A stretch of 64,000 nt of DNA from Candidatus Poriferisocius sp. GTDB lineage: Bacteria > Actinomycetota > Acidimicrobiia > Acidimicrobiales > Bin134. The notes below the pieces were generated by a model. It was given only the letters and a program-made list of their open reading frames with translations. It made no database searches and was not told where the DNA came from. The stretch is from assembly GCF_965208475.1 (NCBI RefSeq), contig NZ_OZ242338.1, positions 1,426,782-1,490,781 on the forward strand, written 5' to 3'. The translations under genes were made by a program, and so were the position numbers. The number at the start of each line of letters is the position of its first letter. Positions within the stretch are counted from its first letter, which is position 1. Positions 5,667 through 50,091 of this stretch are shown in pieces.

Positions 5667-6644
5667 ATGAGCGGCTTTTGGGTCGGCAAGCGAGTCTTGA
5701 TCACCGGCGGAACCGGATTCTTGGGCCAAGCAGTTTGCCGACTGGTCAACCAGCGGAGACCGGCCTTGCTGGTCGCCCCGTCCAGCGCCGACTACGACCT
5801 GCGCACTGCCGGCGACGCCCGCCGGCTGCTGGCCGAGACCCAACCCGATGTGGTCATCCACCTGGCCGCCCGGGTGGGGGGCATCGGCGCCAACCAGGAG
5901 CGGCCCGCCGACTTGTACCTGGACAACCTGCTCATGGGCACAAACGTCATCGAGCAGTGCCGACTGGCGGGAACCGACCGGCTGGCGGTGGTGGGCACCA
6001 TATGCTCGTACCCCAAGCACACCAGGGTCCCGTTCACCGAGGACTCTCTGTGGACCGGATACCCAGAAGAGACCAACGCCCCCTACGGGGTGGCCAAGCT
6101 GGCCCAGCTCGTGCAGCTCCAGGCCAACCGAGACCAGTACGGCCAGCAGGGCATCTATCTGATGCCCACCAATCTGTACGGCCCGGGCGACAAGTTCCAC
6201 CCGTCGGTGTCCCATGTCATCCCCGCGCTCATCAAGAAATGCGTGGATGCTGTCGAAGCCGGCCACGACACCATCGAGGTGTGGGGCACCGGCACGGCCA
6301 GCCGCGAGTTCCTCTACGTGGACGACGCCGCCGAGGGCATCCTGCTCGCCGCCGAGCACTACCGGGGAGCGGCCCCGGTCAACTTGGGGGCCAACCATGA
6401 GGTCGCCATCAAAGAGCTGATACACGATGTGGCCGAGATCACCGGATTCGCGGGCCGCATCGAATGGGATGGGGCCAAACCCGACGGCCAGCCCCGCCGC
6501 TGCGTCGACCCCGCCCGGGCCAAGGAGCTGTTCGGCTTCGAGGCCACCACCCCGTTCGCCGAGGGATTGGGCCGCACCTATCGGTGGTATCTGGCCAACC
6601 GTCACGAAGCCGAGTCGCGAGGCGCGCCGGAGACCGCGGCGTAG
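5667..6644 (+). CDS. fcl: GDP-L-fucose synthase (GDP-4-keto-6-deoxymannose 3,5-epimerase/4-reductase)
   Basis: 'VLITGGTGFLG' Rossmann motif, 'YGVAK' catalytic YxxxK, and 'NLYGPGDKFHPSVSHVIPALIKK' typical of Fcl/WcaG. Confidence 0.85.
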   Translation: MSGFWVGKRVLITGGTGFLGQAVCRLVNQRRPALLVAPSSADYDLRTAGDARRLLAETQPDVVIHLAARVGGIGANQERPADLYLDNLLMGTNVIEQCRLAGTDRLAVVGTICSYPKHTRVPFTEDSLWTGYPEETNAPYGVAKLAQLVQLQANRDQYGQQGIYLMPTNLYGPGDKFHPSVSHVIPALIKKCVDAVEAGHDTIEVWGTGTASREFLYVDDAAEGILLAAEHYRGAAPVNLGANHEVAIKELIHDVAEITGFAGRIEWDGAKPDGQPRRCVDPARAKELFGFEATTPFAEGLGRTYRWYLANRHEAESRGAPETAA

Positions 6645-7963
6645 TCCGCGCCCACCACCAACTCCACATCGGCGCCGTCGATCTCGCTCACTGGCTCCAA
6701 GAGCGGCGCGGGCACCACATAGCGGGCCAGCGTCTGCGCCTCTTCCTCGAATGCCCCGGTATAGCGAACCACCGTTCTGCCCACGTCGAACCGGTCGGCG
6801 TTGACCCGTTCCACCACGGAGAACCCGGCCCGCTCCAAAGCATCCTCCACCCCGGCCACAGTGCCCGACGCAGTACCGTTCAACACTCGCACCCGGACCC
6901 CGGCCAGGCTCCCCGCCCGGAAGAACTCCAGCACCGGCTGGGCCGCCTCCTCCACCAGCAGAAGCACCTGCTTGCCCTCGATGGTGGCATCGACCACCGG
7001 CAGCTTGCGGCGCTCGATCTGATCAACCTGGAACGACCGGAACTCATCGCCCAAATCCACGAGCTGGCCTACGGTGATGCGGTCGTCCAGGGTGACGCTG
7101 GGGCTGTCGCCGTCCAACAGCTCGTTGGCCACCCGTCGCAGGGTCAGCGGATTGCGGATGCCCTTCTCCACCGCCCGTTTGAGGGTGGCCACCATGAAGT
7201 CCTGCTGGCGCTGGTTGCGCTCCAAGTCGTTCCACACGCCGAGGCGCACCCAATCGTCGTCGACCGCCGGGTTGCCCCCCTCGACCAGCGTCAGCGGTCG
7301 ACGGGTCCGCACATAGGCCAGCGCCGCGTCGGGGTCGAGGGTCACCACCCCGGCCTGCTCGATCCTCAGCCCCACCGAATCGTCCCGGATGGGCTGGGCG
7401 ACATCCACCGGCACCCCGTCTACTGCCTCCACGATCCTGAGGAACCCGGCGAAGTTGATCTCCACGTAGTGGTGGATCGGCACCCCCAGATAATCCGACA
7501 CGGTTTCGATCAGGGTGCCGGGCCCGCCAATGCCCCTAGCGGCGTTCACCCGCTCGCTCCATCCCTTGCCGGCGATCGGCAGCCACAGGTCGCGGGGGAT
7601 CGACAGCATCGCCACCCGGTCGGCATCAGGATCAATGCGCACCAGGATCACCGAGTCGGTCAGCAGGGTGTTGACGTCCCGGTCGATGTGAATCGGGCTG
7701 TCGGGGTCGATCCCCGCAGCACTGTCCACCCCCACCAGCAAGAAGTTCTGGGCCTCCGAGTCGCTCTGCTCTTCGGAGGACAGCGAAAGGCCTACCGACA
7801 CCCGGGGAATCTTGCTTATCTGAGATTTCACCACGGCCAGCCCCGCCGCCCCGCCCACCGCGGCGGCGAACACCAGCAATCCGGCGACCACGATCGCCAA
7901 TTGCCCCCTTGTCCTCTTCCGCGCTCTCTTCCTGCGACCCATCGCCTGCCAGTGTAAAAGCAA
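6602..7963 (-). CDS. LytR-CpsA-Psr (LCP) family cell-wall glycopolymer ligase with LytR_C domain
   Basis: N-terminal TM helix. 'FLLVGVDS...TDSVILVRIDPDADRVAMLSIPRDLW' LCP core. C-terminal 'VRVRVLNGTASGTVAG' LytR_C-like region. Confidence 0.85.
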   Translation of the reverse strand: MLLHWQAMGRRKRARKRTRGQLAIVVAGLLVFAAAVGGAAGLAVVKSQISKIPRVSVGLSLSSEEQSDSEAQNFLLVGVDSAAGIDPDSPIHIDRDVNTLLTDSVILVRIDPDADRVAMLSIPRDLWLPIAGKGWSERVNAARGIGGPGTLIETVSDYLGVPIHHYVEINFAGFLRIVEAVDGVPVDVAQPIRDDSVGLRIEQAGVVTLDPDAALAYVRTRRPLTLVEGGNPAVDDDWVRLGVWNDLERNQRQQDFMVATLKRAVEKGIRNPLTLRRVANELLDGDSPSVTLDDRITVGQLVDLGDEFRSFQVDQIERRKLPVVDATIEGKQVLLLVEEAAQPVLEFFRAGSLAGVRVRVLNGTASGTVAGVEDALERAGFSVVERVNADRFDVGRTVVRYTGAFEEEAQTLARYVVPAPLLEPVSEIDGADVELVVGADYAAVSGAPRDSAS

Positions 7964-8007: not shown

Positions 8008-11000
8008 TCAGGGATTCCACAACCCCATCGAGCAGATGACGCTCGGCTCGGTTCCGACGCCGCTTCGGGGCGCGGGGAGGCAGAGCCGGCCGTCTCGGTG
8101 GAGATCGATCACCAGCGCGGCCAAATCCTCGGGCGTCCGATTGCGGATGGCGTTGGACAGCTTCTGCTTCACCGCTTCATAGAGGGGCCGCTCGTTGATC
8201 GCATCGAGAACGGCGTCAAGCTCATCGGGGTCGACGAACAGGCTCGGGGCAATCGTTGCACGATGGTCGTTCAGCTTCCGCCAGCACTTCTCCCTCACGC
8301 CCAACAGCGCGCCCGTGGCTCTGTTCGGGGGTGCCCGCAGCGGGCCGTCGAGTGCAATCGCCACCATGTCGTGGTGATCTTCCATGCAGGCGGCCGGAAG
8401 CGTTTCGGGCTCGCAGCGGGACAGGTGCAGTGCCTCCTGTGGAGTGATGCGCCGGGATTCGCCATCGGTTGTGGTGAAGGCGAAGGCGTCTGCCCCGGTC
8501 GCCGATTGGGAGTGCACCACCACCCCTTCGGCAGTCCCACCGGTCTGGGCTTGCATGGCGGCGTACACCACGTTGGGCAGCGACTCAACCCGCTTGGCGA
8601 TCCTGGGATGGCTGTCGGCCGCCTGCCGCCAGATCTCATAGGCCATAGACACCGGATCGACGTCCTCGCCGCCGTCGGCGAATCGGAAGTCGGAGTGCTC
8701 GTCGTAGAGCCCGGAAATGACCGCCCGCTCCGTATCGTCACCGAAGAACTTCTCATCAGAGCCCAGCAGTTCGGCGTTTTCCTCCAGCCGCCCGCGAATG
8801 CGGTCCCGGAGGTTGATCTCCTCGTCCACCGACCCAGCGGGCATCAGCGAATAGACCAGCACCACTTCGGCTCGTTGTCCGATGCGGTCCACCCGACCGG
8901 CCCGCTGCACCAATCGCACAATGGCCCAGGGAAGGTCGTAGTTCACCACGATGCGGGCGTCTTGAAGGTTCTGGCCCTCCGAGAGCACGTCGGTTGATAT
9001 CAGCACCCGCAACTCGGGCTGGTCTCGACCTGCGGTGACGCCCTGGTTGGCCCTGGGCGAGAAACGGCGGGCCAGCGCGGTGGGGTTCTCCGAGTCCCCG
9101 GTGACCGCGGCCACCCCTTCGATGCCGCGACGGATCAATTCCTCGGCCACGTAATCCGCAGTGTCTGCCGCCTCCGTGAACACCAGCGCCTTCTCACCGG
9201 GGTGGCGCCGGGTGATCAACTCCACCAGCGAGGCGATCTTGCCGTCGTTGTCGGCATCCCAGGTGCCAAAGTGGCTGAGAAGCGACCGTATCGCGTCGGT
9301 GTCGGAGCGCAACGCCTCGCCAAACTCCTCTGCGAAGAGCTGAGGCCGCATCCACCGGATCCGACCGGGCCTGGCCTGGGCCAGCTTTTGGTAGGCCCTA
9401 GCTGGAACCGACAGGTCGGGCATTTCGTCGACATTGAACAGCCCCTCTTCGAACAGGTCGCCCTCCTGGGCGTCGAACTCGGCCGACCACAGGGCGTTGT
9501 CCACCGACCCCACCGGCAGCAGCAAGCGGTGGTCGATGGCGTGGATAGCGACGAGGTTTCGCAGCGCGTGGCGGCGAAGCGTGGCCAGAAACGCCGGCCC
9601 CGAAGAGGTGAGGCGCTTGAACATCATGATCCGGTTGAACCCGCTGAGGTTCCCGTTGGCGGAGTTGCGGAGATCGTCGATCACTTCCTGTTCGTCCTCG
9701 GTCGGCGCCACTCGGGGATCGAGATATCGGGCCAGGTTGTAGCGGGGCAACAGCAACTCGGCTATCGCGTCGATGGTGCGCTGGTCCATCATGGCCGCGG
9801 CCGGATCGCTGGGCACCACCTCCCGCTCGAGCGGCACCGCCTCTCTTTCGGGGAAATGGAAGGGCCGCCCGTCGCCAAAACTGAGGTGGGGACGGCCGTT
9901 CTCGTCCTCGTAGGCGTAGTTGTCCTGAATGAATCGACGTGTGCGCCGCACCAGGAACTGCGACATCAGGTCCTGCCAGTCTTCGAGGTGCTCTGATGCC
10001 TGAAATGCGGCCAGCGACGAGGTGCGGCCTTCGCACATCGCGGCGAACTCTGCCTCGCCGTGTTCGGCGACAGCCCGCTCGGGGCGTATGCCCAGGTCGT
10101 CGTCGGGTCTTGCAAACAGCGCGATCTGAGCGGCCACATCGGCGAACCCCTTGTTGTAGGGGGTGGCGGTGAGCAGCAGCACTTTGGAATCGTTCTCGGT
10201 GATGTAGTCGTGAAGGGCCTGGTAGTCCTGACGCTTGGGATTGCGCAGATTGTGTGACTCATCGATGAGCACCAGCCGGTGCCGCCGCATGTCGGGCAGT
10301 TCTCGGGTGACCATCGACAGCGAGAGCACCCGACCGTGAATCTGAAACTCGTGCTGATACGACTCCCACATGCCCACCAGGTTCTTCGGGCACACGACAA
10401 GCGTCTCGAACCCGTTCTCCTCCTGAAGGAGTCGGGCGATAGCCGTGCCCACCATCGTCTTGCCGAGCCCGACCACGTCGCCCACCATCGCCCCGCCCCG
10501 CTGGTTCACGATCCGGGCCGCGATCTTCACCGCCGCAGCCTGGAACTCCAGGAGCCTCTCGGCCATCGAGGCTGGCAGCCCGTACTGGATGAGCCCCTCA
10601 CGGGCCTCATGCGACAGGTGATAGGCCATCTTGAGGTACACCAGGTAAGGATCGAGCGGCGTCTCCGATGCCCATGACTCATCCAGCAGCTCAATCAACT
10701 CAATGTTCGCCGGCACCGAGAACTGGTCGACCCAGCGGTCCTCGAACCAGGCGGCAAGCTTGGCGGTGGCATCGGTGTCGAGCACGTCGACGTTCAGCTC
10801 GCCCTGCTCCCAAAGCCCGGCCCTGGTGAGGTTGGACGACCCGACATAGCCCACCCTGGGCGCCGCGGTGTCGTCGCGGTGGCACAGATAGAGCTTGGCG
10901 TGGAGGCGGTGAGCCAGGAATAGCCGCACCTCCACATCGCCTTCAGCCATCTGCCGACGCAACTTCCGCAGCGCCTTCTCGTCTTCGACCGTGGGGAGGC

Positions 11001-11400
11001 CGACCTGGAGTTGGGCTCGAAGCTCCTTTACCGCCTCATGGCGATGCTGTTCAGCCACCTCATTGGTCACCGGCTGCTCACCCCGCAGCCTCATCAAGCG
11101 ACGCATCTCTTCGTGGGGGGTCTCCGTCATGCCCACCAGCAGGCGAACCTTGGGCCTATTACCACCACGCTCCGGCAGGGCATCTACCCCATCGGCAATG
11201 AGCCGCCAGCCCCGAAGGTTGAAATACCCCACCGCCGCGTCCACCGAGTGCGACGACGCCAGCGACTTGAGCATCACCTCCTCAAGCGAAGTGTCGATGT
11301 TGTCGAGGATGAGAGGCACCAGGACTACTCCCTGTTCCCAAACGTCATCCGGTCTCGCAGATTGCCCGCCGCCTCGTACTGCTCCCTCGTCAACCCCCAA
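8008..11400 (-). CDS. PLD-family (single HKD) nuclease domain fused to SNF2-family helicase
   Basis: - HKD motif: 'HAKLYLCH...VGYVGSSNLTRAGL'.
- SNF2 motifs: 'VVGLGKTMVG', 'LIDESHNLRN', 'LLLTATPYNK', 'DVLSEGQNLQD', 'QRAGRVDRIGQ'.
- About 330 aa of C-terminal region with no motif I recognise.
- Alternative start at GTG 11319 (MPLILDNID...), 9 nt after a GGGAG and just past the methyltransferase stop. Confidence 0.85.
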   Translation of the reverse strand: MGVDEGAVRGGGQSARPDDVWEQGVVLVPLILDNIDTSLEEVMLKSLASSHSVDAAVGYFNLRGWRLIADGVDALPERGGNRPKVRLLVGMTETPHEEMRRLMRLRGEQPVTNEVAEQHRHEAVKELRAQLQVGLPTVEDEKALRKLRRQMAEGDVEVRLFLAHRLHAKLYLCHRDDTAAPRVGYVGSSNLTRAGLWEQGELNVDVLDTDATAKLAAWFEDRWVDQFSVPANIELIELLDESWASETPLDPYLVYLKMAYHLSHEAREGLIQYGLPASMAERLLEFQAAAVKIAARIVNQRGGAMVGDVVGLGKTMVGTAIARLLQEENGFETLVVCPKNLVGMWESYQHEFQIHGRVLSLSMVTRELPDMRRHRLVLIDESHNLRNPKRQDYQALHDYITENDSKVLLLTATPYNKGFADVAAQIALFARPDDDLGIRPERAVAEHGEAEFAAMCEGRTSSLAAFQASEHLEDWQDLMSQFLVRRTRRFIQDNYAYEDENGRPHLSFGDGRPFHFPEREAVPLEREVVPSDPAAAMMDQRTIDAIAELLLPRYNLARYLDPRVAPTEDEQEVIDDLRNSANGNLSGFNRIMMFKRLTSSGPAFLATLRRHALRNLVAIHAIDHRLLLPVGSVDNALWSAEFDAQEGDLFEEGLFNVDEMPDLSVPARAYQKLAQARPGRIRWMRPQLFAEEFGEALRSDTDAIRSLLSHFGTWDADNDGKIASLVELITRRHPGEKALVFTEAADTADYVAEELIRRGIEGVAAVTGDSENPTALARRFSPRANQGVTAGRDQPELRVLISTDVLSEGQNLQDARIVVNYDLPWAIVRLVQRAGRVDRIGQRAEVVLVYSLMPAGSVDEEINLRDRIRGRLEENAELLGSDEKFFGDDTERAVISGLYDEHSDFRFADGGEDVDPVSMAYEIWRQAADSHPRIAKRVESLPNVVYAAMQAQTGGTAEGVVVHSQSATGADAFAFTTTDGESRRITPQEALHLSRCEPETLPAACMEDHHDMVAIALDGPLRAPPNRATGALLGVREKCWRKLNDHRATIAPSLFVDPDELDAVLDAINERPLYEAVKQKLSNAIRNRTPEDLAALVIDLHRDGRLCLPAPRSGVGTEPSVICSMGLWNP

Positions 11401-12989
11401 GCCTGCGCCAACAACCAGTCCGCCTCATCGGTGATGTGGCGCAGCTTCCACATCATGTATCTGCCCACCAGCATTCTTGCGTTTCCACTGCCTCTTAGGT
11501 TGAACTCCACATACTTCACCATTTCGTCTTGAAGCTCCCTGGACAACCCCAACATACGCTGAACTAAACTCACGAGTTCCATGTCACACGGAGGGTGGTG
11601 AGACGCTGCTAAGCGTTCAATGTCACACGGAAGTGCGGATAGCACGCTCCGTGTGACATGGAACTCGTCTCCGAACATCAGCCACCACAAGTACCCCCAT
11701 CGACCGGCCAGGCAAAGCAAGGCCAAGTCTCGAGAACGCTCATTCTGGAAATTGAACCACGAGGGCTGACTTGAGTTTGTGGTTACAGGTCGCCTGGATA
11801 TGGGATCGACTACTGGGGGTTCCGTGACAAATGCTCCCAATGTTTGAACAGCAGCGACCTTCTTGACACCCAAATCAAATAGCTGGCCACTCTTGTTGTT
11901 AACGCTTACAAGTGGAGCACACATCTCTGCAAGTGATGTAAAGGCATCGACTACATCTCCATCATCTATAAACGGCCACTTGGTTGCGTCTCCACAATTG
12001 AAAAGTACTCGTGAAGGATTGCCGTATTCAATCGAAGAGAACAAATATGGGCGGCTAGGAGTCAACCAGCGGTGACACCTTGTCGTGTATATCCTACGTT
12101 TACCTCCTTTGCCAGATATAACTATACTATTTCTCACCTTGGCAGAACCAGAAAATAAACTATCTGAAGCTCTGCTGTAAGAGGACAGCCACAAAGTAGA
12201 GAACTGTACACTTAGGTTATTCCGCAACAACTCAAAATCGTTGCTGTAACACAGCGAGTGCATTACGATCATCGCAAATCGTCCTTTGTCGTTCAACAAG
12301 GTAGATGCGCGCTCGGCACAGACGGCGTAGATGTCTGGACAATTACCGGTCTCATACCCAATCCACTTGTAGTCGAACTGACTGCGTTTCTTGCCTTTGA
12401 GTCCGATGTAGGGCGGGTTGCCGATGATCGCGTCGAAGCCGCCGTTTCTCCAGACGGTGGGGAACTCGGCGAACCAATGGAAGGGCTTGTGGGTTTCCTT
12501 CCAGGTTTCGAGCGGGGCTGCATCGCCTCGCATCTTGTGGAGACCTCGGTCGGCTTGGTCGGCTACCTGACCGATGCGGGTTCTGAGGAGGCCTTTGGCC
12601 CGTTGCAGAGCCGCTAGATCGTCGGTTGAATCTTGAATCGCTACGAACTCCTCGTAGGCCACCGCCGCCGACTCCACGGCGTCCTCCACCTCAGCGATCC
12701 CGAAGGGCAGCACTCCCCTGTCTGAGAACCGCCGCTCGATATCTTCAGCGTCGGCGATTCCTACAAGGAGGTTGCCGGACTTGATGTTGAAGTCCAGGTC
12801 GGGGAGCGGCTCGATGTGGGAGGCGTTGTCGAGTTGGGCGGCCAACTTCAGAAACAGCCGCAGCTTGGCGATCTCGGCTGCCTCGGCCATGAGGTCGACG
12901 CCGTAGAGGTTGTTCAGGCAGAGAGTCTTAAGCAGCCAGTAGCGCGTGCTGGTGTGGGCCCGGGCCTCTCGGAGAAATGGGGCTTCCAC
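11325..12989 (-). CDS. C-terminal fragment of Eco57I/PglX-like N6-adenine DNA methyltransferase (motif IV + putative target-recognition domain)
   Basis: 'NLYGVDLMAEAAEIAKLRLFLKL' and 'FDAIIGNPPYIGLKGKK' (NPPY motif IV). Its frame joins the upstream fragment if the G tract at 12991-13001 changes by +1 or -2. Confidence 0.8.
   Translation of the reverse strand: MEAPFLREARAHTSTRYWLLKTLCLNNLYGVDLMAEAAEIAKLRLFLKLAAQLDNASHIEPLPDLDFNIKSGNLLVGIADAEDIERRFSDRGVLPFGIAEVEDAVESAAVAYEEFVAIQDSTDDLAALQRAKGLLRTRIGQVADQADRGLHKMRGDAAPLETWKETHKPFHWFAEFPTVWRNGGFDAIIGNPPYIGLKGKKRSQFDYKWIGYETGNCPDIYAVCAERASTLLNDKGRFAMIVMHSLCYSNDFELLRNNLSVQFSTLWLSSYSRASDSLFSGSAKVRNSIVISGKGGKRRIYTTRCHRWLTPSRPYLFSSIEYGNPSRVLFNCGDATKWPFIDDGDVVDAFTSLAEMCAPLVSVNNKSGQLFDLGVKKVAAVQTLGAFVTEPPVVDPISRRPVTTNSSQPSWFNFQNERSRDLALLCLAGRWGYLWWLMFGDEFHVTRSVLSALPCDIERLAASHHPPCDMELVSLVQRMLGLSRELQDEMVKYVEFNLRGSGNARMLVGRYMMWKLRHITDEADWLLAQAWGLTREQYEAAGNLRDRMTFGNRE
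11572..11668. repeat. 22-bp perfect inverted repeat (53-nt spacer) inside the methyltransferase 3' half
   Basis: acgagttccatgtcacacggag (11572-11593) is the reverse complement of 11647-11668. A third partial copy, caatgtcacacggaag, lies in the spacer. Confidence 0.9.
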
Positions 12990-14566
12990 ACCCCCCCCCC
13001 CGCGGCAATCTCTTCGGCGCGATTCAACACCGCTGTGTACAGGGGGTCGAGCACGTCATGGGCGGCCAGCAGGAACGCTCCCGATCCCACTGTGGGATCG
13101 CAAACCGTCAGAGAGCGGAGCACCTCGAACGCTCGCTGGCACTCGTCGGCAGAGTTGAGCGTGTAATAGAGGTAGTCGGCCAGCAGCGCGGCAAGATCCA
13201 GGTTCTGCGTGACAGCGTCGTTGATGTCGGCTACGCCTCCAGAATCCACCAGCTCTTTCTGCTCGGCGTATCGCTTGCGGCGATGGCTCACGTCGCACCA
13301 CCGCTCGCCGGGCAAGGTGATGTCCAGCCCCCCGTCAGGAAACTCGCTGGGCGGCAGATCGCCCTCAGGCAAGGGCACATCGATTCCGTAACCCATAGCG
13401 TCGTGCAAGTAGTCGTCGCCGCTGCTGGACAACAGCTCGCACGGACTCTCGAGGCCGGCATCCACCAGCCTGTCGGCAATAGCCGGAATGATGGCCGAGG
13501 TGGCCATGTAACCGGTTACGTCTGGTTTGGTGTAATACGCCCCTTGCTGCTTCTTGTTCACATACTGCTCGAAGATGAATCCCAAGATGTCGGGGTTGAT
13601 CTCCTTGGCATCGCCAGTGGGCCGCTCGTCGAGATGCCAGCGCCACTGGTCGAAGAAGTCGAACAGCTTCTCGAAAGCCGTGTCGGGAATCTCGATGCAG
13701 TAAGCGCCTTCCAGCGCGTGGGGCTCGAAGATGCCACCGTTCACATAGGGCACATCGCCAATGATCTGCTCGATCGCCGCATCGTCGTAGCGGCGGGCCG
13801 CAGGCGGGCTTCCCAACCCCTCGTGGAACAGCGGCAGCAGGAACTGGCGGAAGAATGCGTAGAACCGGTCGTCCCCGAGGCGCTCTCGCACCATTCCCAG
13901 CCGCTTGCGGAGGTAGTGGGTGTCGCCGGCCACGAAGCCCTTGCGCTGGATGAAGTACACGAACATGAGACGGTTCATCAGCACCGACGCATACCAGCGC
14001 TGGTCGTCTGGCCTGGGAATGCCCTCGATATGCTCGGCCAGTCGCTCATGATGGTCTTTGAACTCCCGGAAGAACGACTTGGTGACCTTCTCCACGTTGA
14101 ACGACCGCCGCACCCGTTCGAGCACCCTTACTGCGGTCAGCTCCGGCTGCTCAGCCATGGTGAAACAAACATCGCGCAGGCGTTGCAGCAGAGCATCGTT
14201 GCCGTGGTGCGGGCGATAGTGGTGATCCACGAGCCGATGCCCCACCCCGGAAGGACGCTGCTCCGGCCACAGCCAAAGCTGCTCCCCCGGTGAGGCGAAC
14301 ACCACGAGCTGGTCACGCGACAAACGCTTCGCCGCCTTCACGATCTTATGCTGCACCGACCGAAGCGGAATCTCGCTGCACCCCACCGACCAAACCGTCA
14401 CGCCCCGCTTGTCGGCCACTGCCTCTGCGTCCCAAACCGATTCCTCGGCCTCAACGGCGACAGCCAAGCCATGAATGGGGTTGTCCCAACCAAGCCGCCG
14501 GAACAAACCGCCGAAATCATCGGCGTCCATATATTCCTGCATCTCCTGGTCGGATGGCCCAGGCAT
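12914..14566 (-). CDS. N-terminal fragment of the same N6-adenine DNA methyltransferase (N-terminal domain, motif X, motif I)
   Basis: 'QQGAYYTKPDVTGYM' (motif X) and 'LTVCDPTVGSGAFLLAAHD' (SAM motif I). 'YASVLMNRLMFVYFIQRKGF' is the helix typical of Type IIG/PglX-like N-terminal regions. It terminates about 25 codons after the G tract. Confidence 0.8.
   Translation of the reverse strand: MPGPSDQEMQEYMDADDFGGLFRRLGWDNPIHGLAVAVEAEESVWDAEAVADKRGVTVWSVGCSEIPLRSVQHKIVKAAKRLSRDQLVVFASPGEQLWLWPEQRPSGVGHRLVDHHYRPHHGNDALLQRLRDVCFTMAEQPELTAVRVLERVRRSFNVEKVTKSFFREFKDHHERLAEHIEGIPRPDDQRWYASVLMNRLMFVYFIQRKGFVAGDTHYLRKRLGMVRERLGDDRFYAFFRQFLLPLFHEGLGSPPAARRYDDAAIEQIIGDVPYVNGGIFEPHALEGAYCIEIPDTAFEKLFDFFDQWRWHLDERPTGDAKEINPDILGFIFEQYVNKKQQGAYYTKPDVTGYMATSAIIPAIADRLVDAGLESPCELLSSSGDDYLHDAMGYGIDVPLPEGDLPPSEFPDGGLDITLPGERWCDVSHRRKRYAEQKELVDSGGVADINDAVTQNLDLAALLADYLYYTLNSADECQRAFEVLRSLTVCDPTVGSGAFLLAAHDVLDPLYTAVLNRAEEIAAGGGVWKPHFSERPGPTPARATGCLRLSA
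12991..13001 (-). repeat. Homopolymeric G11 (C11 on + strand) inside the methyltransferase catalytic domain
   Basis: Direct count gives c x11 at 12991-13001. It lies between motif I and motif IV. A length of 12 or 9 would give one roughly 1,080-aa ORF. Confidence 0.95.
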
Positions 14567-14707
14567 CCGAGCAAGCTAGGGCATATACCGCTCCCGAGCC
14601 AGCCCGCCCAATGAGTCGAGACGACAATAACGTCTTTGTGACCAATGTTGCTATTGTTTCATATTTTCTAAGTATTTCTCTGCTTTTACCAGATATTCAC
14701 AGGGTTA
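14567..14707. promoter_or_regulatory. AT-rich divergent intergenic region (probable promoters for the methyltransferase operon and the HNH gene)
   Basis: There is a sharp GC drop (…ttgctattgtttcatattttctaagtatttctctgcttttaccagatattcac…) between divergent genes. No specific -10/-35 boxes are assigned. Confidence 0.4.
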
Positions 14708-15322
14708 TTGTCACCGGTTGATGATATGCTTACAGCCATGAGGTTTGCCCCTGACCAGGCCGAACACACCGAGGCCCATAACTCCGCTGTAGACGGTTGC
14801 GGGGCTTCGGTGTGCATCAAGGGCTCGGCCAGAGGCATTGCCCTAGTGCTGGTGGCCGACTACGACGCCACCAGCCGGGAACTGGTCAACGCCCGCCTCG
14901 GCGACGGCACCCCGCTGCCGATGAAAGAACTCGTCCGGCTGGCCCTCAAAGCAGACATCTTCCCCGCGGTGTTCGACGCCAAGACTCAGAATCTGTGGCT
15001 CGGGCGCAGCAGGCGTACCGCCACCGACGCCCAGCGCATCGCCTTGATGGTACGCGACCAAGTCTGTATCGGCTGCGGCGGCGCCCCGAGCCGGTGTTTC
15101 GCCCATCATGTCAAGTTCTGGAAGAACAACGGGCCCACCGACTACCCCAACCTCGTCTTGGTCTGCAACGACTGCCACCACGAAATCCACGAACAAGGTT
15201 TCCAAGTCACGCAAGACCCCGGCACCGGCCGCTGGCAAACCCATCCCCCACCCGACCCATTCCCCGACACCGGCACAACAACTTGGCAACCCGTACACGC
15301 TGATTCCGTGCTGATGTGTTGA
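14708..15322 (+). CDS. HNH endonuclease domain protein, apparently N-terminally truncated (DUF222/13E12-type)
   Basis: 'RDQVCIGCGGAPSRCFAHHVKFWKNNGPTDYPNLVLVCNDCHHEIHEQG' HNH motif. Only about 110 aa precede it, whereas actinobacterial relatives normally carry a roughly 250-aa DUF222 region. Confidence 0.7.
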   Translation: MSPVDDMLTAMRFAPDQAEHTEAHNSAVDGCGASVCIKGSARGIALVLVADYDATSRELVNARLGDGTPLPMKELVRLALKADIFPAVFDAKTQNLWLGRSRRTATDAQRIALMVRDQVCIGCGGAPSRCFAHHVKFWKNNGPTDYPNLVLVCNDCHHEIHEQGFQVTQDPGTGRWQTHPPPDPFPDTGTTTWQPVHADSVLMC

Positions 15323-15399
15323 ATCCTCGAGCTTCCCCCTGAGGTTGCTCTCCCATTAGCAGAGACAAGCTTCGCAAATGCTCAAGTACACTGAACCCG

Positions 15400-16416
15400 A
15401 TGGAGGTGGCGGCTGTTGCCGTGGTGGGACACCACTTGTGTTCCAGGCTGGCCGATGTCACCGACGATTTAACCGCCTTGGAGTCGAGCGGGTTCTGGGC
15501 GGTGGCCATCGACTTCCACGGCAAAGCGGTGTGCGCCCGCTTCGACTCGGTGCGCCCCGCCCGCCCCTGGAAGGGCCGTCCCTGGAAGGGCCTCCCGGCC
15601 GACACCTGGACCAGCTCATTGGATCGGGCCGGTTTCGGCGCCGGTGTGTCGGCCATCCGGGAGATGATCGGCGCCGGCGACGTCTATCAGGTGAACCTCA
15701 CCCGCCGGCTGAGCGCGCCGCTCATCGATCCCGACACCGACATCGCCGCGTTGGGGGCGGCCCTAGCCGAGGGCAACCCCGCACCCTACGCCGCAGTGCT
15801 GCGCCTGCCCGATCACGGGGTGCACATCGCCTCGGCCTCACCGGAGCGGTTTGTGGTCCGCGACGGTCGGTGGGTGGAGTCGTCCCCCATCAAGGGAACC
15901 GCGGCCGAGCCGTCTGGGCTTACCCCCAAAGACCAAGCCGAGAATCTGATGATCGTGGATCTCGTGCGCAACGATCTGGGGCGGGTCTGCGACTACGGAA
16001 CGATCAGCGTGCCCGCTCTCTTCTCCCTGGAGCACCATCCTGGGCTCGTACACCTGGTTAGCACCGTTCAAGGGCGACTGCGCCCCGGCTGCGGGTGGCC
16101 CGAGCTGATCTCGGCAACATTCCCCCCCGGATCGGTCACCGGCGCCCCCAAACTAGCTGCGCTCGACGCCGTTGCCGCCTTGGAGCCGCAGGCCCGCGGG
16201 GTGTATTGCGGGGCCGTGGGCTGGGTGGACGCCGACCGGGGCAAGGGCGACTTGAACGTGGCCATCCGCACGCTGTGGATCGAAGACGGCCACCTCCACT
16301 TGGGCACCGGCGGCGGCATCACCTACGACAGCGACCCCGATGACGAGTGGCGGGAAACCGAGTTGAAGGCCGAGCGGCTGCTGGCTGTGGCCACCGGGGA
16401 GTACATCCACCTATGA
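15400..16416 (+). CDS. pabB: Aminodeoxychorismate synthase component I (short chorismate-binding enzyme)
   Basis: 'GDVYQVNLTRRL', 'SPERF', 'PKDQAENLMIVDLVRND' and 'FPPGSVTGAPKLAA' chorismate-utilising enzyme motifs. Confidence 0.8.
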   Translation: MEVAAVAVVGHHLCSRLADVTDDLTALESSGFWAVAIDFHGKAVCARFDSVRPARPWKGRPWKGLPADTWTSSLDRAGFGAGVSAIREMIGAGDVYQVNLTRRLSAPLIDPDTDIAALGAALAEGNPAPYAAVLRLPDHGVHIASASPERFVVRDGRWVESSPIKGTAAEPSGLTPKDQAENLMIVDLVRNDLGRVCDYGTISVPALFSLEHHPGLVHLVSTVQGRLRPGCGWPELISATFPPGSVTGAPKLAALDAVAALEPQARGVYCGAVGWVDADRGKGDLNVAIRTLWIEDGHLHLGTGGGITYDSDPDDEWRETELKAERLLAVATGEYIHL

Positions 16417-17252
16417 GCTCTGCTGAGCCCCGCATCGTTTGGATCAACGGGGCGCTGGTTCCCGAGGACCAAGCCCGGATCTCCCCGTTCGACCACGGCT
16501 GGCTGGTGGGAGACGCGGTGTTCGAGACCCTGGTCATCGTGCGGGGCATGCCGTTCGCCGCTCGCCGCCACTTGGAGCGGCTGGCCTATTCGGCCGAGCA
16601 CCTGGGCGTGGCGGTGCCCGACGCCGATGTGCTTCAAGAGGCAATGGTTGCGGTGGCCGCGGCCAACCAGCTCGAAGAGGGGCGGTTGCGGGTCACCGTC
16701 AGCAGCGGCACCGGGCCGCTGGGCAGCAACCGGGGCGACAGCCCGCCCACCGCCACGGTGGCCGCCACCCCCCAAGCCCCGTGGCCCGACACCACTTCGG
16801 TTGCCACCGTCGAATGGACCATCAACGAGCACAGCCCTTTGGCCGGCCTCAAAACCGTTTCCTACGGCGCCAACGTGCGGGCCCTGGCCGCGGCCAAGGC
16901 GGCCGGGGCCGGCGAGGCCATCTTCGCCAACACCCGGGGACTTCTCTGCGAGGGCACCGGCAGCAACGTGTTCCTGGCTTATCAGGGCCAGCTCATCACC
17001 CCTTCGCTGGCCTCGGGATGCCTGGCCGGCATCACCCGCCAACTGGTGATCGATCTGACCGGCGCGGTCGAACAAGACGTGCCCCTCAGCGCCCTCGCCG
17101 CCGCCGACGAGGCGTTTCTCACCTCCACCACCCGCGACGTTCAACCAGTCCACGCCGTCGACGGCCAGCGGCTGCCCGCCGCCCCCGGCCCCGTTACCCA
17201 AGCCGCCGCCCAAGCCTTCGCCCACCTCAAAGCGACCCAGATTGACCCCTGA
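16413..17252 (+). CDS. pabC: Aminodeoxychorismate lyase / class IV aminotransferase
   Basis: 'WINGALVPEDQARISPFDHGWLVGDAVFETL' fold-type IV PLP enzyme N-terminus. Its ATG overlaps the pabB TGA (ATGA). Confidence 0.7.
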   Translation: MSSAEPRIVWINGALVPEDQARISPFDHGWLVGDAVFETLVIVRGMPFAARRHLERLAYSAEHLGVAVPDADVLQEAMVAVAAANQLEEGRLRVTVSSGTGPLGSNRGDSPPTATVAATPQAPWPDTTSVATVEWTINEHSPLAGLKTVSYGANVRALAAAKAAGAGEAIFANTRGLLCEGTGSNVFLAYQGQLITPSLASGCLAGITRQLVIDLTGAVEQDVPLSALAAADEAFLTSTTRDVQPVHAVDGQRLPAAPGPVTQAAAQAFAHLKATQIDP

Positions 17253-17985
17253 GGCGGACAACATCTCCAACCACAACCCTTATCCCCCCCTCCAGAAGTA
17301 GCGCACCCCGCTCATCCAAGTCTTCGGCCAAACCCTCCAACACCGTTCCGTCGCCGAGCTCCACCGACACTCGGCAGCCCAAAGTGGCCGACTCGCGGCG
17401 CGCCGCCGCCATCAACGCAGCCTGGCCGGTTGCTACCTCGATTCTCTCCATCCAGTAGGCGAAACCGGTCAGAATCTCTGCCAGCAGCTCTCGGCGGTCG
17501 ATCACCTCACCACACACATCCTCAAGGGCTACGGAGGTTTCGGCAGCTTCGGAAGGCGCAGCACCCGTGCGCACGTTGAGACCCATGCCCACCACAACCG
17601 CCTCCAGCCGTCCCCCGGCCATAATTGACTCGGCCAGCACGCCGGCCAGTTTCCGATCGCCCACAACCAGATCGTTCGGCCACTTCAGCCCCGGCCGCAC
17701 CCCGGCTTGAGCCCGACACGCCTCCACTGCTGCTAGGGCCAACGCGGTGGTCGCCAAGTGGGACGACTCAACGGCGAGCCTGGGCCTTGTCAGCACCGAG
17801 AACAACAGGCCTGACTCCGGAGACGCATCCCAGGTTCTCCCCCGTCGGCCTCGTCCGGAGCGCTGGTAGTCGGCCACCAGGACTTTGCCGGGCTCGGCGC
17901 CGATACGGGCCGCAGCCAGGAGGTCGGCATTGGTCGAGCCGGTTTCAGCAACCCATTCCACCCGAAACCCTGAGACTCCCCTCAC
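17227..17985 (-). CDS. birA: Biotin--[acetyl-CoA-carboxylase] ligase
   Basis: 'GSTNADLL' and 'YQRSGRGRRGRTW' (GRGRxGRxW) motifs. Confidence 0.85.
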   Translation of the reverse strand: MRGVSGFRVEWVAETGSTNADLLAAARIGAEPGKVLVADYQRSGRGRRGRTWDASPESGLLFSVLTRPRLAVESSHLATTALALAAVEACRAQAGVRPGLKWPNDLVVGDRKLAGVLAESIMAGGRLEAVVVGMGLNVRTGAAPSEAAETSVALEDVCGEVIDRRELLAEILTGFAYWMERIEVATGQAALMAAARRESATLGCRVSVELGDGTVLEGLAEDLDERGALLLEGGIRVVVGDVVRLRGQSGSL

Positions 17986-18059
17986 ATCCTCACCCCTGCT
18001 CCCATATTCCCATCGGCCAGTATTCGCGTGTTCAAGAAACTCTCTGCCACCATATTGCC

Positions 18060-19820
18060 GTGTTGTCCAAGGTTCTGGTCGCGAACCGGGGGGAGATCGC
18101 CGTCCGGGTTATCCGGGCCTGCCGGGAGATGGGCATCGCCACGGTGGCGGTGTACTCCGATCTCGACCGCGGCGCCCTCCACGTGCGCATGGCCGACGAA
18201 GCCCACGCGCTGGGCGGCCAGACCGCGGCCGAGAGCTACCTGAACACCGAGGCCATCCTCGGGATCATCGAGCGCTCCGGGGCCGACGGCGTCCACCCCG
18301 GCTACGGGTTCTTCTCCGAGAACGCCGACTTCGCCCGGGCCATCACCGCCCGGGGGGTGGCGTTCATCGGCCCCAACCCCGAGGCGATAGAGATCATGGG
18401 CGACAAGATCTCCGCCCGCCAGGCCGCCGAGCGGGTGGGGGTCCAAGGCGTGCCCGGCACCACCGAGCTCATCACCGACCCCGCCCAAGTGCGGGCCTTC
18501 GGGGCCGAATACGGCTACCCGGTGGCCATCAAGGCGGCCTACGGGGGCGGCGGCCGGGGCATGAAAGTGGTGTCCGACGAGGGCGCGGTGGACGAGGCCA
18601 TCGAGTCGGCCCAGCGGGAGGCGCTCAGCTATTTCGGACGCGACGAGATCTACATGGAGAGATATCTGGAGAGGCCCCGCCATGTGGAGGTGCAGGTGCT
18701 GGCCGACGGCCACGGCAACTGCGTGTACCTGGGCACCCGCGACTGCTCGGCCCAGCGCCGTCATCAAAAGCTCATCGAGGAGGCCCCCGCGGCGGGCATC
18801 GACCCCGATGTGCTCGCCGCCATGGGGGAGGCCGCGGTCAAGGTGGCCCACGGCTGCGACTACGTGAATGCCGGAACGGTGGAGTTCCTGTATGAGGACG
18901 GCGCGTTCTACTACTTGGAGATGAACACCAGGCTCCAGGTGGAGCACCCGGCCACCGAGTTGGTGACCGGGATCGACTTGGTGGAGCAGCAGATCCGGGT
19001 GGCCTCGGGCGAGCCGCTGCCGTTCACCCAGGAGGAAGTGGCCATCTCCGGCCACGCCATCGAGGTGCGCATCAACGCCGAAGACCCCGCCGAGGGTGCA
19101 TTTTTGCCGTCGCCGGGGCCGATTGCCGGCCTGCGCCTGCCCAGCGGCTTCGGCACCCGCTGGGACGGCGGCTACGAGGCCGGCGACGAGATCAGCCAGT
19201 TCTACGACAACTTGGTAGGCAAGCTGATCTGCTGGGGCCGGGACCGGCCCACCGCCATTGCCCGCACCCTGCGGGCCCTCGATGAGCTGGAGGTGAGCGG
19301 AGTGGCCACCACTATCGCCGCCGATGCGGCCATTCTGGCCCACCCCGATTTCGCCGCCTTGGCCCACTCCACCAAGTGGGTGGAGGAGACCCTCGACCTC
19401 ACCGGGGTCGGGGCGGCCGCCACTGCGCCACCAGAGGTTGACAGCGACGAGCCCCGGGTGCAGCGAGACATCGATGTGGAGGTCAACGGCCAGCGCTTCT
19501 CGGTGCGGATGTGGGTGCCGGAGACCGCGGCAGCCGCGGCTCCGGCAACCGGTGCGGCCAAGCGCCCCAAGCGGGCGGGCGCCGGCAAGAGCGGGGGCAC
19601 CGGGGGCAGCGGCGACGTGGTAGTTCCCATGCAGGGCACCATCGTGAAGGTGATGGTGGCCGAAGGCGACTCGGTGGACGCGGGAGACGCCATCGTGGTG
19701 CTGGAAGCCATGAAGATGGAGAACAACGTCTGCGCCGAGAAGCCCGGCACAGTGGTTGAGATCCGGGTCGCCGAGGGCGACTCGGTGGGCAGCGGAGACG
19801 TGGTCGCGGTCATCGAATAG
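18060..19820 (+). CDS. accA: Acetyl/propionyl-CoA carboxylase alpha subunit (biotin carboxylase + BCCP)
   Basis: 'KVLVANRGEIAVRVIRACREMGI', ATP-grasp region, and C-terminal 'LEAMKMEN' biotinylation motif. GTG start at 18060; the ORF-track N-terminal extension is non-coding-like. Confidence 0.9.
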   Translation: MLSKVLVANRGEIAVRVIRACREMGIATVAVYSDLDRGALHVRMADEAHALGGQTAAESYLNTEAILGIIERSGADGVHPGYGFFSENADFARAITARGVAFIGPNPEAIEIMGDKISARQAAERVGVQGVPGTTELITDPAQVRAFGAEYGYPVAIKAAYGGGGRGMKVVSDEGAVDEAIESAQREALSYFGRDEIYMERYLERPRHVEVQVLADGHGNCVYLGTRDCSAQRRHQKLIEEAPAAGIDPDVLAAMGEAAVKVAHGCDYVNAGTVEFLYEDGAFYYLEMNTRLQVEHPATELVTGIDLVEQQIRVASGEPLPFTQEEVAISGHAIEVRINAEDPAEGAFLPSPGPIAGLRLPSGFGTRWDGGYEAGDEISQFYDNLVGKLICWGRDRPTAIARTLRALDELEVSGVATTIAADAAILAHPDFAALAHSTKWVEETLDLTGVGAAATAPPEVDSDEPRVQRDIDVEVNGQRFSVRMWVPETAAAAAPATGAAKRPKRAGAGKSGGTGGSGDVVVPMQGTIVKVMVAEGDSVDAGDAIVVLEAMKMENNVCAEKPGTVVEIRVAEGDSVGSGDVVAVIE

Positions 19821-46300: not shown

Positions 46301-46853
46301 GGTTGTCCTTGCCGAAGATGTCCTGGAGGCGGGCCGCCTTGGCCACCGCCTCCTCGTACTCGTCGCGCAATAGGGACTGGAGCACGTGCCCGCCCAGACA
46401 GCCGGTGGTGGCAATCAGGCCATCGCTGTGCTCGGCCAACAGATCCCAGTCCAGCCGGGGCTTGTAGTAGTAGCCCTCGAGGAATGCCCGGCTGGACAGC
46501 TGGATGAGGTTCTTGTAACCGGCGTTGTCCTCGGCCAAAAGGGTGAGGTGGTAGTAGAGCTTGGCCCCTCCCTCGGTGCTGCCCCCGCCGTCGTCCATCT
46601 TGCCCCGCCGGGGCGGGCGCTCCGACCGGTTCTCGTGGGCCATGTAGGCCTCCGTGCCGATAATGGGCTTGACGCCCTCGGCCCGGCAGGCCCGGTAGAA
46701 GTCGATGACCCCGTACATGTTGCCGTGGTCGGTGATCCCCAGCGCGGGCTGCCCGTCGGCAGCCGCCGCCTTGACCAGGTCACCAACCCGGGAGGCGCCG
46801 TCGAGAATGGAGTACTCGGTGTGGACGTGGAGGTGGGTAAAGGAATCGGACAC
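43326..46853 (-). CDS. dnaE: DNA polymerase III alpha subunit
   Basis: 'FTHLHVHTEYSILDGA' PHP domain; polymerase core and OB region throughout. GTG start at 46853 preferred over 46955. Confidence 0.95.
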   Translation of the reverse strand: MSDSFTHLHVHTEYSILDGASRVGDLVKAAAADGQPALGITDHGNMYGVIDFYRACRAEGVKPIIGTEAYMAHENRSERPPRRGKMDDGGGSTEGGAKLYYHLTLLAEDNAGYKNLIQLSSRAFLEGYYYKPRLDWDLLAEHSDGLIATTGCLGGHVLQSLLRDEYEEAVAKAARLQDIFGKDNLFVEIQDHGIPEQQRTNPELLRLAEQIGAPLLATNDSHYTHRSDAEAHDALLCVQTGSLVSDPDRLRFHGNEHYLKSSAEMRGLFAELGPACDNTLWIAERADVEIEFGNPQLPDFPIPEGFETADDYLRELTLKGAESRWGRPLSDGAADRLAYELKVISDMGFSSYFLITWDLIRYARERGIRVGPGRGSAAGCAVAYCLRITDLDPIRYDLLFERFLNPSRVSMPDIDMDFDSRYRDEIIRYATEKYGRDHVAQIITFSTIKARAAVRDSARVLDLPYSLGDKLAKAMPPLVLGRDTPLWACLEPTEEYADGYKAAAELREMRESDEDAHKVIDVARGLEGLRRQDGIHAAAVVITKEPLTEHLPIQRKASPNQSLDEVPIVTQYEMHAVEDLGLLKMDFLGLRNLDVIEDALGLIEQSLGTAMDIDNVSLDDSATYELLARGDTIGVFQLESPPIRALMRSLKPTCFDDVAALVALYRPGPMAANMHHDYADRKNGRRPVEFFHEDASDILADTYGLMIYQESVMRVAQRFAGYSLAEADNLRKACGKKDRELMAKERDSFVEGCDQHGYGTDLGTELFDIIEQFADYAFNKSHSYGYGLIAYQGAYLKANYPVEYMAALLTSVKNKLEKAAVYLADCRQRGIRVTLPDVNLSHSDFAAIRSPGGEPSISFGLSAIRQVGAGAAQMILDERAENGPFADFYDFCQRVDPMVLNKGVVEALVKAGSFDSLGHPRQGLLNVFEPIMRRGIQQQREREQGVMSLFDEGALDSVYEDIAIPDTEFDKARRLAAEREMLGLYVSDHPVMGLEGVLARRTSHRIDQLVDVEEGTRVKVGGVVSNFSKRWTKRGDQMGSCELEDLYGSLEVTLFPKALAEHGHKIENDLVVVMEGRLESRDEEPKLLCSRVEPVRLDWANGLGPLRVNLPARRLTPDRIDGLKSALAGHPGKSEVILMLGADKGIKLSSAYGVDAGSGLIGELREMLGENAIAV

Positions 46854-47003
46854 TGCGTTCCTGTGGAAGATGTGTGGCCTGTATGTGGATAACTTACAGG
46901 CTTGTGGTTTGGCCTGCCCCGACCATACCAACACCCGGCGACTCGTGCTTATCACCGGCTGAGGGCGCGTGTTCTCCCTGGTACACGGCTACTTGGCCAT
47001 GAG

Positions 47004-47036
47004 CTAGCGGCGTGTCGAGTGTTTGGTTGCGGTGTT
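47004..47036. repeat. Left arm of a 33-nt inverted repeat (25 nt perfect: 47012-47036)
   Basis: ctagcggcgtgtcgagtgtttggttgcggtgtt. The reverse complement of 50299-50331 is ctagtggtgtgtcgagtgtttggttgcggtgtt (2 mismatches). Confidence 0.95.
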
Positions 47037-47075
47037 AGGCAGCGTGTCGCCGGCAGGCTGCTGTGGTCGTTGGGC

Positions 47076-49817: not shown

Positions 49818-49819
49818 GA

Positions 49820-49842
49820 CCCCCCCCCCCCCCCCCCCCCCC
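49820..49842 (-). repeat. Homopolymeric G23 (C23 on + strand) immediately 5' of the signal-peptide coding sequence
   Basis: Direct count gives c at 49820-49842. Confidence 0.95.
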
Positions 49843-50091
49843 GAACGGAGAGACCCATCAACAACACCAACAACAGACGAACCAGCCAACACGCTCACAA
49901 CATGACCCTCCCGCTCAGCCTTCAACGGCCTGCGATATCTTTGCAGCATCCAAGCGCTGAACACATCCCGACGCCGGAACACGCGCAGCAATACATGCAG
50001 CCAGCATACGGACCCACACACACCCGGTCAACGACGCCATAGCCCCAGCGCCCTGCCGGCCGCCTTGGGCGCTGCCGTGCGCCACGCGAAT

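Follow-up and report, generated by a model that had tools for sequence, protein, structure and literature searches.

In the 64,000-nucleotide stretch of the Candidatus Poriferisocius sp. contig NZ_OZ242338.1 analysed here (the window), three long minus-strand open reading frames (ORFs) occupy positions 8008-14566. According to the ORF list and translations, the first two (12914..14566 and 11325..12989) are the halves of one adenine methylase gene, parted solely by a run of 11 G, and the third (8008..11400 in its longest frame) encodes a helicase-nuclease in which a single-HKD phospholipase D (PLD) domain precedes a Swi2/Snf2 motor. We consider it probable that this pair forms a stand-alone, two-protein, ATP-dependent restriction-modification (R-M)-like defence cassette, in which the HKD-Snf2 nuclease is targeted by the methylase and which is phase-variable. 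Judging from their sequences, the PglX-like methylase probably chooses the DNA target and the PLD-nuclease/Snf2 protein probably cuts it.

All features of the pair lie on the minus strand, and their motifs were read from the translations. The N-terminal part of the methylase (13002..14566) comprises an alpha/beta domain (approximately residues 1-115), a helical region, motif X (GAYYTKPDVTGYM, 13505-13543) and motif I (VCDPTVGSGAFLL, 13067-13105). It ends at the G tract (12991..13001; C11 on the plus strand), a frameshifting simple-sequence repeat that leaves the window methylase OFF. The C-terminal part continues in the -1 frame (11325..12990) with the NLYGVD...LRLFL helix (NLYGVDLMAEAAEIAKLRLFL, 12849-12911), motif IV (IIGNPPYIG, 12402-12428), a target-recognition domain (TRD) and a TAG stop codon (11325-11327). 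With 12 or 9 G the two halves form a single ORF of 1080-1083 residues in which NPPY follows motif I, the gamma-class motif order of Eco57I-type enzymes.

Pfam matches of the methylase were Eco57I (90 bits; residues 552-783) and MmeI_Mtase. Its best PADLOC match was the REBASE-derived model PDLC03628 'REase_MTase_IIG' (566 bits, residues 9-1066 of 1080), the PADLOC DrmMI and PglX models matched only partially, and the NCBIfam PglX score was 63.5 bits against a cutoff of 500, with the BREX models far under their cutoffs. We modelled the structure with AlphaFold2 on an intact homologue, P0121, which is 75% identical (pLDDT 86.9, pTM 0.90), and the N-terminal 115 residues of the model form an alpha/beta domain. 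In a Foldseek search with this model the top Protein Data Bank (PDB) entry was the BREX protein BrxX/PglX (E 6e-14), whose alignment covered the full length; CamA, DrdV, MmeI and the Type ISP enzymes LlaGI and LlaBIII came next. When the PDB was searched by sequence with both proteins of the pair, no close relative emerged, and the hits were confined to the PglX motif IV region and to generic Snf2 cores. Among 54 full-length homologues, conservation of motif I and NPPY is complete or at least 90%, and the last ~300 residues show no conservation, as a TRD would lead one to expect. The residues of the first 115 that are at least 90% conserved are L21, F22, G26, W27, A51, G55, P67, E/D85, W98, W100 and R104; no D..E.K nuclease triad is present in this set, which is a test of sequence conservation only. 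Because the N-terminus has no conserved nuclease triad, the 'Type IIG' label that PADLOC would give the methylase appears doubtful.

The helicase-nuclease begins with the single-HKD PLD domain (10645..11319; Pfam PLDc_2 and RE_NgoFVII, the latter at 30.4 against a threshold of 23.8), which contains HAKLYLCH (10879-10902) and GSSNLTRAGL (10813-10842). The RapA/BrxHII-like Swi2/Snf2 motor follows (8740..10551; Pfam SNF2-rel_dom and Helicase_C) with GLGKT (10456-10470), DESH (10252-10263), TATP (10159-10170), SEGQNLQD (8959-8982) and QRAGRVDRIGQ (8875-8907). H140, K142 and G160-N163 of the HKD motif are invariant in 46 homologues, and Walker A/B, motif VI and the other Snf2 motifs are likewise invariant across homologues. 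The AlphaFold2 model of this protein was moderate (pLDDT 69.8, pTM 0.45), with E. coli RapA (8spg) as its top Foldseek match (E 1.6e-14, ~1100 aligned columns). The C-terminal region (approximately residues 861-1103 and the stop codon, 8008..8739) matched no Pfam family; its conserved columns include VDPVSMAYEIWR (8626-8661), and we regard it as a candidate RapA-like alpha+beta or partner-docking region, although confidence of the model is low in this part. The Pfam scan detected neither DUF3427 nor any other modified-base reader in the protein.

More than 100 helicase homologues are approximately 1103 residues long and start with MPLILDNID, which places the start of the window protein at GTG 11319. 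This codon sits 5 nucleotides past the methylase TAG (junction 11317..11327), and its AGGGAG ribosome-binding site falls within the 3' end of the methylase gene. In these respects the locus agrees with an earlier sequence-only reading of it. The motifs quoted there are all present, and the gamma-class methylase of about 1080 residues, proposed from two fragments, is obtained by changing the tract length alone. The domain assignments of that reading (Eco57I for the methylase, a single-HKD/Snf2 fusion for the helicase) were recovered by the profile searches. Its N-terminal domain without catalytic function and its C-terminal TRD are in keeping with the conservation among the homologues. The tight coupling of the two genes likewise holds, and of the two candidate starts it offered (11400 and GTG 11319) the homologues fix the latter.

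To see how widely the pair occurs, we used the helicase alignment, which retrieved 80 loci from species-representative genomes, all full length and 41-83% identical. In such genomes the family amounts to at least 578 confirmed full-length matched stretches; it forms ~1530 clusters at 50% identity (E <= 1e-30), and 22 plasmids carry members. A tblastn search with the joined methylase placed a methylase homologue adjacent to the helicase and on the same strand in ~74 of the 80 loci. The 80 loci span more than 10 phyla, with Acidimicrobiia, Latescibacterota, Chloroflexota, Poribacteria, Verrucomicrobiota, Cyanobacteria, Bacteroidota, Proteobacteria, Mesorhizobium, Microbacterium and others represented. 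The methylase is upstream of the helicase in the Acidimicrobiia clade of the window and downstream in all distant clades. When all ORFs of 83 loci were clustered, the methylase and the helicase were the sole universal families, and no recurrent DUF499, DUF3780, DrmA/B, PglZ or BrxC appeared. A DprA-like gene (Pfam DNA_processg_A, ~200 residues; e.g. L047 16546-17298 and L040 16622-17281) follows the pair, in the same orientation, in 31 loci of the distant clades and is missing from the window and its clade; it may be a third component of the distant, helicase-first sub-family. ABC/AAA_21 ATPase and PIN genes are sporadic neighbours. Two plasmids, Rhodococcus pR1CP2 and Pelobacter pPRO1, carry the genes abutting or overlapping, with nothing else defence-like near, and at locus L093 the pair stands in an unrelated setting amid small phage-like ORFs, WhiB and TnpB; given these plasmid copies and the mobile-looking context of L093, the cassette is mobile.

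Several loci of this collection have distinctive surroundings. L082 encodes a 1292-residue protein (13024-18327) with just ~170 N-terminal residues of the methylase, followed by a separate beta-class N6_N4 methylase. At L042 the partner of the helicase is an Hsp70-like protein (9984-12413), and the methylase-free L052 carries RNA polymerase alpha-C-terminal-domain-like, Schlafen/AlbA_2 and AAA_15 genes (13435-18547). A divergent gene for a RAMA-domain (restriction enzyme adenine methylase associated) protein lies just upstream of the intact pair at L093 (5992-7620). In some helicase-first loci a VapBC/PIN toxin-antitoxin pair is found between helicase and methylase, as at L094 (10487-11120; Synechocystis pSYSX) and L038 (13430-14038). 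The assembly GCA_001752985.1 holds three diverged methylase copies (L083, L085 and L086, on LXNI01000057, LXNI01000579 and LXNI01000354), which are 88%, 65% and 62% identical to the window methylase; two of them have OFF G tracts.

The G tract of the window has counterparts in related methylase genes, located at two sites. At the site of the window tract (site 1, ~residue 525) the repeat is G8 in L084, G10 in L001, G12 in both L002 and L085, and (TG)15 in L003, all of them OFF; L093 has G9 and is intact (ON), and L013 has (AG)17, which is read through as ERERER (ON). In a second loop (site 2, ~residue 400) we found G9 in L007, G10 in L020 and G17 in L011 (OFF), and G17 in L005, (CGAC)27 in L008 and C15 in L014 (ON). 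A one-unit change of the repeat was by itself sufficient to restore an ORF of 1070-1219 residues in the window and in all nine frameshifted relatives tested. Counting the window and nine relatives, 10 repeat-bearing alleles are OFF; a further five are ON, and no second lesion affects any of these 15. In a sixteenth, L004 (G13), no tract length restores the ORF. Of 21 methylase-first loci, 14 have a repeat, compared with three of 67 helicase-first loci (Fisher p 9e-9, the loci not being phylogenetically independent). None of 88 helicase genes carries a repeat tract, and the di- and tetranucleotide repeats of the methylase are the only such repeats among the ~90 loci fetched. One OFF methylase allele, L036, belongs to a helicase-first locus.

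The methylase repeat is thus coding, polymorphic in length among close relatives, present in ON and OFF frames and accompanied by no other lesion, as is characteristic of contingency loci. This pattern reads as the signature of selected, reversible switching, and the G tract of the window appears to be one allele of a convergent repeat-based switch, a point of which the sequence-only reading had made too little use. The phase-variation layer, which is well supported, adds to its finding. There is a direct precedent in Streptomyces coelicolor, where a G tract in pglX drives phase variation of the Pgl system. A literature search found no paper on phase variation in sponge symbionts.

A further difference between close relatives concerns the specificity region. 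The methylase N-terminal parts (13002..14566) of L001, L002, L003 and L084 are 83-89% identical to that of the window at the amino acid level, and by blastn the DNA of the whole island is 81-88% identical to these loci except in the TRD. The break extends over 12300-11435 relative to L001, approximately 12250-11705 relative to L002 and L084, and 12256-11705 relative to L003, and blastn found no DNA similarity to any of the four inside it. GC content is 0.50 at 11500-12500, in the methylase 3' half, against 0.65-0.70 in the flanks; the cassette itself has a GC of 0.50 and a third-codon-position GC of 0.65, compared with 0.78-0.81. Because no DNA similarity remains within the break and GC falls to 0.50, the TRD of the window (11435..12300, approximately residues 755-1044) has been replaced, and the specificity of the methylase is therefore likely to differ between strains.

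Outside the pair, the window flanks contain housekeeping and remnant genes: an LCP gene on the minus strand (6602-7963) and, on the plus strand, a 204-residue DUF222-HNH remnant (14708-15322) and pabB (15400-16416). Class IV aminotransferase and biotin carboxylase genes are among them as well. The island therefore consists of exactly two genes, and no DISARM or BREX partner was found among the flank genes. The AT-rich region upstream of the methylase (14567..14720) may contain the leader and promoter of the operon. A scan for sigma-70 promoters and terminators gave counts near the shuffled expectation and nothing convincing on the minus strand; a weak hairpin lies past the helicase stop codon (7983-7965). 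The DUF222-HNH remnant lacks ~640 bp relative to L001 (L001 5896-6533). Ten loci have genes of this kind close to the pair, though not always in one place, which suggests a mobile element that frequents the island.

The only other homopolymer of at least nine nucleotides in the window is a C23 run (G23 on the minus strand; 49820-49842). Some 25-30 nucleotides downstream of it is a GTG at which a signal-peptide-like N-terminus begins within the long minus-strand ORF 47076-50021. No Pfam family matched this ORF, and we regard the run as a candidate promoter or leader contingency tract for a large secreted protein. At L002, C16 (13522-13537) and C15 (17613-17627) runs lie ~50 nucleotides upstream of two paralogous ORFs of ~970 residues, which form an insertion, along with a PhdYeFM/PIN pair, in the space separating the helicase gene from LCP. 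The one that was scanned (13585-16494) gave a Calx-beta match below the cutoff. BLASTP found no homology between the G23-associated ORF of the window and the C16-associated ORFs of L002.

The building blocks of the pair and the logic of its pairing are already described for DISARM-I, ARMADA, BREX-3 and Type-2 BREX-related (BR) systems. That HKD-SWI2/SNF2 fusions exist in R-M contexts has been on record for years, and an HKD-Snf2 effector is the hallmark of Type-2 BR, also known as Gao_RL or MANTIS, whose RapA/BrxHII-like helicase has an N-terminal HKD domain in place of Tudor. The MANTIS effector MtsD is a dimer with one PLD active site and needs the methylase for targeting; its asymmetric sites are hemimethylated, and knocking out mtsC is not toxic. 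Our pair shares with MANTIS (MtsABCD) the effector layout of an N-terminal single HKD/PLD domain and a RapA/BrxHII-like superfamily 2 (SF2) motor. In both, the effector is paired with an N6-adenine methylase that would mark asymmetric sites, and the dimeric model with a single active site would apply here as well. In contrast to MANTIS, the DUF499 AAA+ loader (MtsA) and DUF3780 (MtsB) are absent from the window and the 80 loci, and the methylase is a 1080-residue Eco57I/PglX-type NPPY enzyme with its own TRD, whereas MtsC has DPPY. The PADLOC 'HKD+Snf2' model matched the helicase only partially (129 bits).

A BrxHII/RapA-like helicase together with a PglX-like methylase is also a module common to DISARM class 1, ARMADA and BREX-3. 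With DISARM class 1 (DrmD, DrmMI and DrmABC) and ARMADA (ArmA, ArmB and a YprA helicase) our pair has in common the adjacent Snf2 and PglX-like genes, and the DrmD and DrmMI models do match the helicase and the methylase (NCBIfam DrmD 117 against a cutoff of 610). However, YprA/DrmA-DrmB (DUF1998) or ArmC are absent from the window island and the locus clusters, and the DrmC-like PLD nuclease of DISARM is here fused onto the Snf2 protein. Compared with BREX, which provides the closest full-length structural relative of the methylase, an explicit nuclease is present and PglZ, BrxC/PglY, BrxA/B and BrxL are absent; the actinobacterial pglX of the Pgl system shares phase variation by a G tract. 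As in Type III (Mod/Res) and Type ISP (LlaGI/LlaBIII) enzymes, a methylase with a TRD would give an SF2 motor-nuclease its specificity at asymmetric, hemimethylated sites, and in Type III systems, too, mod is upstream of res and repeat switching occurs in mod. The Type III Mod is beta-class with an internal TRD, whereas the methylase here is gamma-class of the Eco57I type; the nuclease is an N-terminal PLD domain rather than Mrr or the PD-(D/E)xK domain that is C-terminal in Type III Res; the motor is of the Snf2/RapA type; and two polypeptides replace the single chain of Type ISP. An ATP-dependent PLD-type nuclease is shared with SauUSI and with CglI/NgoAVII. The former is modification-dependent, acts alone and has a C-terminal DUF3427 reader of modified cytosine; in the latter, PLD and ATPase reside in two proteins, with a B3-like DNA-binding domain and a C5 methylase.

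From these comparisons, the cassette is a minimal variant among BREX/DISARM/MANTIS-related defences with Type III-like logic. The literature search found no named or tested two-gene form consisting of a PLD-Snf2 protein and an Eco57I/PglX-like methylase, only related multi-gene systems. The proposal of the sequence-only reading that the pair is a candidate non-canonical system is supported, with the qualification that the methylase family is already in PADLOC and REBASE as 'Type IIG'. Its other expectations fared well. The island lacks DISARM, BREX and Type I partners, none of the PADLOC and NCBIfam models assigns the pair to a complete known system, the two genes recur together across several phyla and on plasmids, and the stand-alone SauUSI-like enzyme that it had named as a possible refutation finds no counterpart in a helicase without a SauUSI-type reader domain.

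One member of the family has been studied for its methylation. On plasmid pSYSX of Synechocystis PCC 6803 the order is helicase - VapBC - methylase, so that this locus, unlike that of the window, is helicase-first, has VapBC between the genes and is free of repeats. Its methylase is Slr6050, which is 34% identical to P0121 over its full length (1100 residues), and the helicase homologue upstream (pSYSX 43696-47151) has intact catalytic motifs. Slr6050 is M.Ssp6803IV, which is in REBASE (Hagemann et al. 2018, PMC6105098), and was tentatively assigned the asymmetric motif GA(m6A)GGC (m6A, N6-methyladenine), with 1317 chromosomal sites. A slr6050 deletion could not be segregated (PMC6105098). The authors noted a weak HSDR_N similarity in Slr6050, treated it as an orphan or Eco57I-like enzyme without mentioning the partner helicase, and described the strain as virtually free of restriction enzymes (PMC6105098). 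A linked active nuclease may explain why slr6050 appeared to be essential.

We propose the following mechanism for the cassette. The methylase would recognize a short asymmetric site and methylate one strand of host DNA, and would probably double as the specificity subunit for restriction. At unmodified sites the HKD-Snf2 partner would be recruited and would use ATP to move along or remodel the DNA, cleavage occurring once two protomers join their half-sites to make a single PLD active site, in the manner of BfiI, SauUSI and MtsD. Inverted pairs of sites would probably be preferred, if the cassette behaves like its Type III, Type ISP and MANTIS analogues. Slippage of the repeat in a surface loop of the methylase would toggle the gene between ON and OFF, and TRD cassettes would be swapped by recombination. 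Because the methylase is upstream and its stop codon lies 5 nucleotides from the nuclease start, premature termination should silence the nuclease too; an OFF methylase would thus silence its partner through polarity and lost coupling, without self-killing. Losing the targeting subunit would disarm the nuclease as well, and the tolerated OFF alleles, one of them in the helicase-first locus L036, lend support to the dependence of the nuclease on the methylase.

Other explanations of the pair can be weighed against this one. It is improbable that the methylase is a self-contained Type IIG or IIL enzyme with its own N-terminal nuclease and that the HKD-Snf2 protein is an accessory or independent neighbour. 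The end-to-end PDLC03628 match, the presence of MmeI and DrdV among the structural relatives, the alpha/beta fold of the first 115 residues and the HSDR_N similarity of Slr6050 speak for such an enzyme, but the acidic/lysine triad it requires is not conserved among the 54 homologues, the closest structural relative is the nuclease-less PglX, and near-obligate adjacency to an HKD nuclease-motor in both gene orders would go unexplained if the methylase cut alone. We did not accept this explanation, since the conserved set of residues 1-115 includes no nuclease-type triad. A modification-dependent helicase-nuclease (Type IV, SauUSI-like), or a Pgl-like logic whereby methylation tags invading DNA for later destruction instead of protecting self, seems very improbable. 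The PLD and SF2 architecture is indeed that of SauUSI, and the methylase-OFF alleles common beside an intact nuclease gene would be harmless to such an enzyme. A modified-base reader was nevertheless not detected, it would be suicidal to inherit an active methylase along with a nuclease directed at the methylated product, and in Synechocystis the chromosome carries an m6A motif at 1317 sites beside an intact helicase, where loss rather than presence of the methylase is not tolerated.

The switch, too, has competing accounts. That the frameshift of the window is a homopolymer error of assembly or sequencing, or ordinary gene decay, rather than an OFF state is fairly unlikely. Most platforms are prone to errors at G/C homopolymers of 10 or more, several of the relatives are long-read metagenome-assembled genomes, and a model of independent, identically distributed bases at 67% GC gives an estimated ~0.5-1 run of at least 11 G/C per 64 kb. 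Set against this, errors of +/-1 cannot account for all of the lengths 8, 9, 10, 11 and 12, which come from independent assemblies and have conserved flanks, different repeat types, (TG)15 and (AG)17, occupy one site, and decay would add stop codons, of which there are none in ten OFF genes of 3.2 kb; an error would in any case touch the state of the window alone, not the existence of the switch. There is also little chance that the pair is mainly an epigenetic regulator (a 'phasevarion'), in which methylase switching rewires host expression and defence takes second place. Phasevarions are classically recognized by Type III mod or Type IIG genes that switch through repeats, and 11 of the 16 repeat-bearing alleles are OFF; yet a regulator needs no obligately linked, catalytically intact nuclease-motor, the cassette is found on plasmids and in mobile contexts, and regulation of this kind is compatible with defence rather than exclusive of it.

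Several points weigh against the methylase-targeted, phase-variable defence cassette that we prefer. Cleavage, defence and a physical interaction of the two proteins are proposals drawn from sequence. Six of the 80 helicase loci have no methylase; in three of these the contig breaks off at the helicase, L042 and L052 have different genes in its stead, and L082 shares just the N-terminal segment. Phylogeny confounds the association of repeats with gene order, the methylase-first loci being one clade, and homopolymer lengths in assemblies may err by +/-1, so that single ON/OFF calls, that of the window included, are uncertain. With a moderately confident helicase model, the assignment of the C-terminal domain is weak. 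GA(m6A)GGC was assigned to Slr6050 by elimination only (PMC6105098), and the failure to segregate the slr6050 deletion fits a methylase-independent nuclease at least equally well, while polyploidy may confound it.

A broader view, which we put forward tentatively as plausible but short of probable, is that BREX-3, DISARM-I, ARMADA and MANTIS-type systems were elaborated from this pair as a minimal core sufficient in itself, and that in uncultivated, mostly sponge-associated Acidimicrobiia the at least four kinds of repeat at two loops were acquired convergently and act as a reversible, population-level bet-hedging switch in addition to TRD shuffling. Here the PglX-like methylase alone would load and direct the HKD-RapA-like motor nuclease, without an AAA+ loader, a YprA helicase or PglZ. 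How a PglX-type methylase communicates with an Snf2/RapA motor is a question that also concerns BREX-3, DISARM-I and ARMADA, and in MANTIS the methylase is loaded with the help of two additional proteins. With just two proteins and an explicit nuclease, the present cassette would offer the simplest setting for reconstituting the coupling of methylase and motor. Current classifiers would call a lone 'Type IIG' enzyme at such loci and miss the nuclease, so that restriction barriers would be mis-stated, including those of Synechocystis 6803. Finally, the repeat switch extends contingency-locus biology from pathogens and the Streptomyces Pgl system to uncultivated symbionts.

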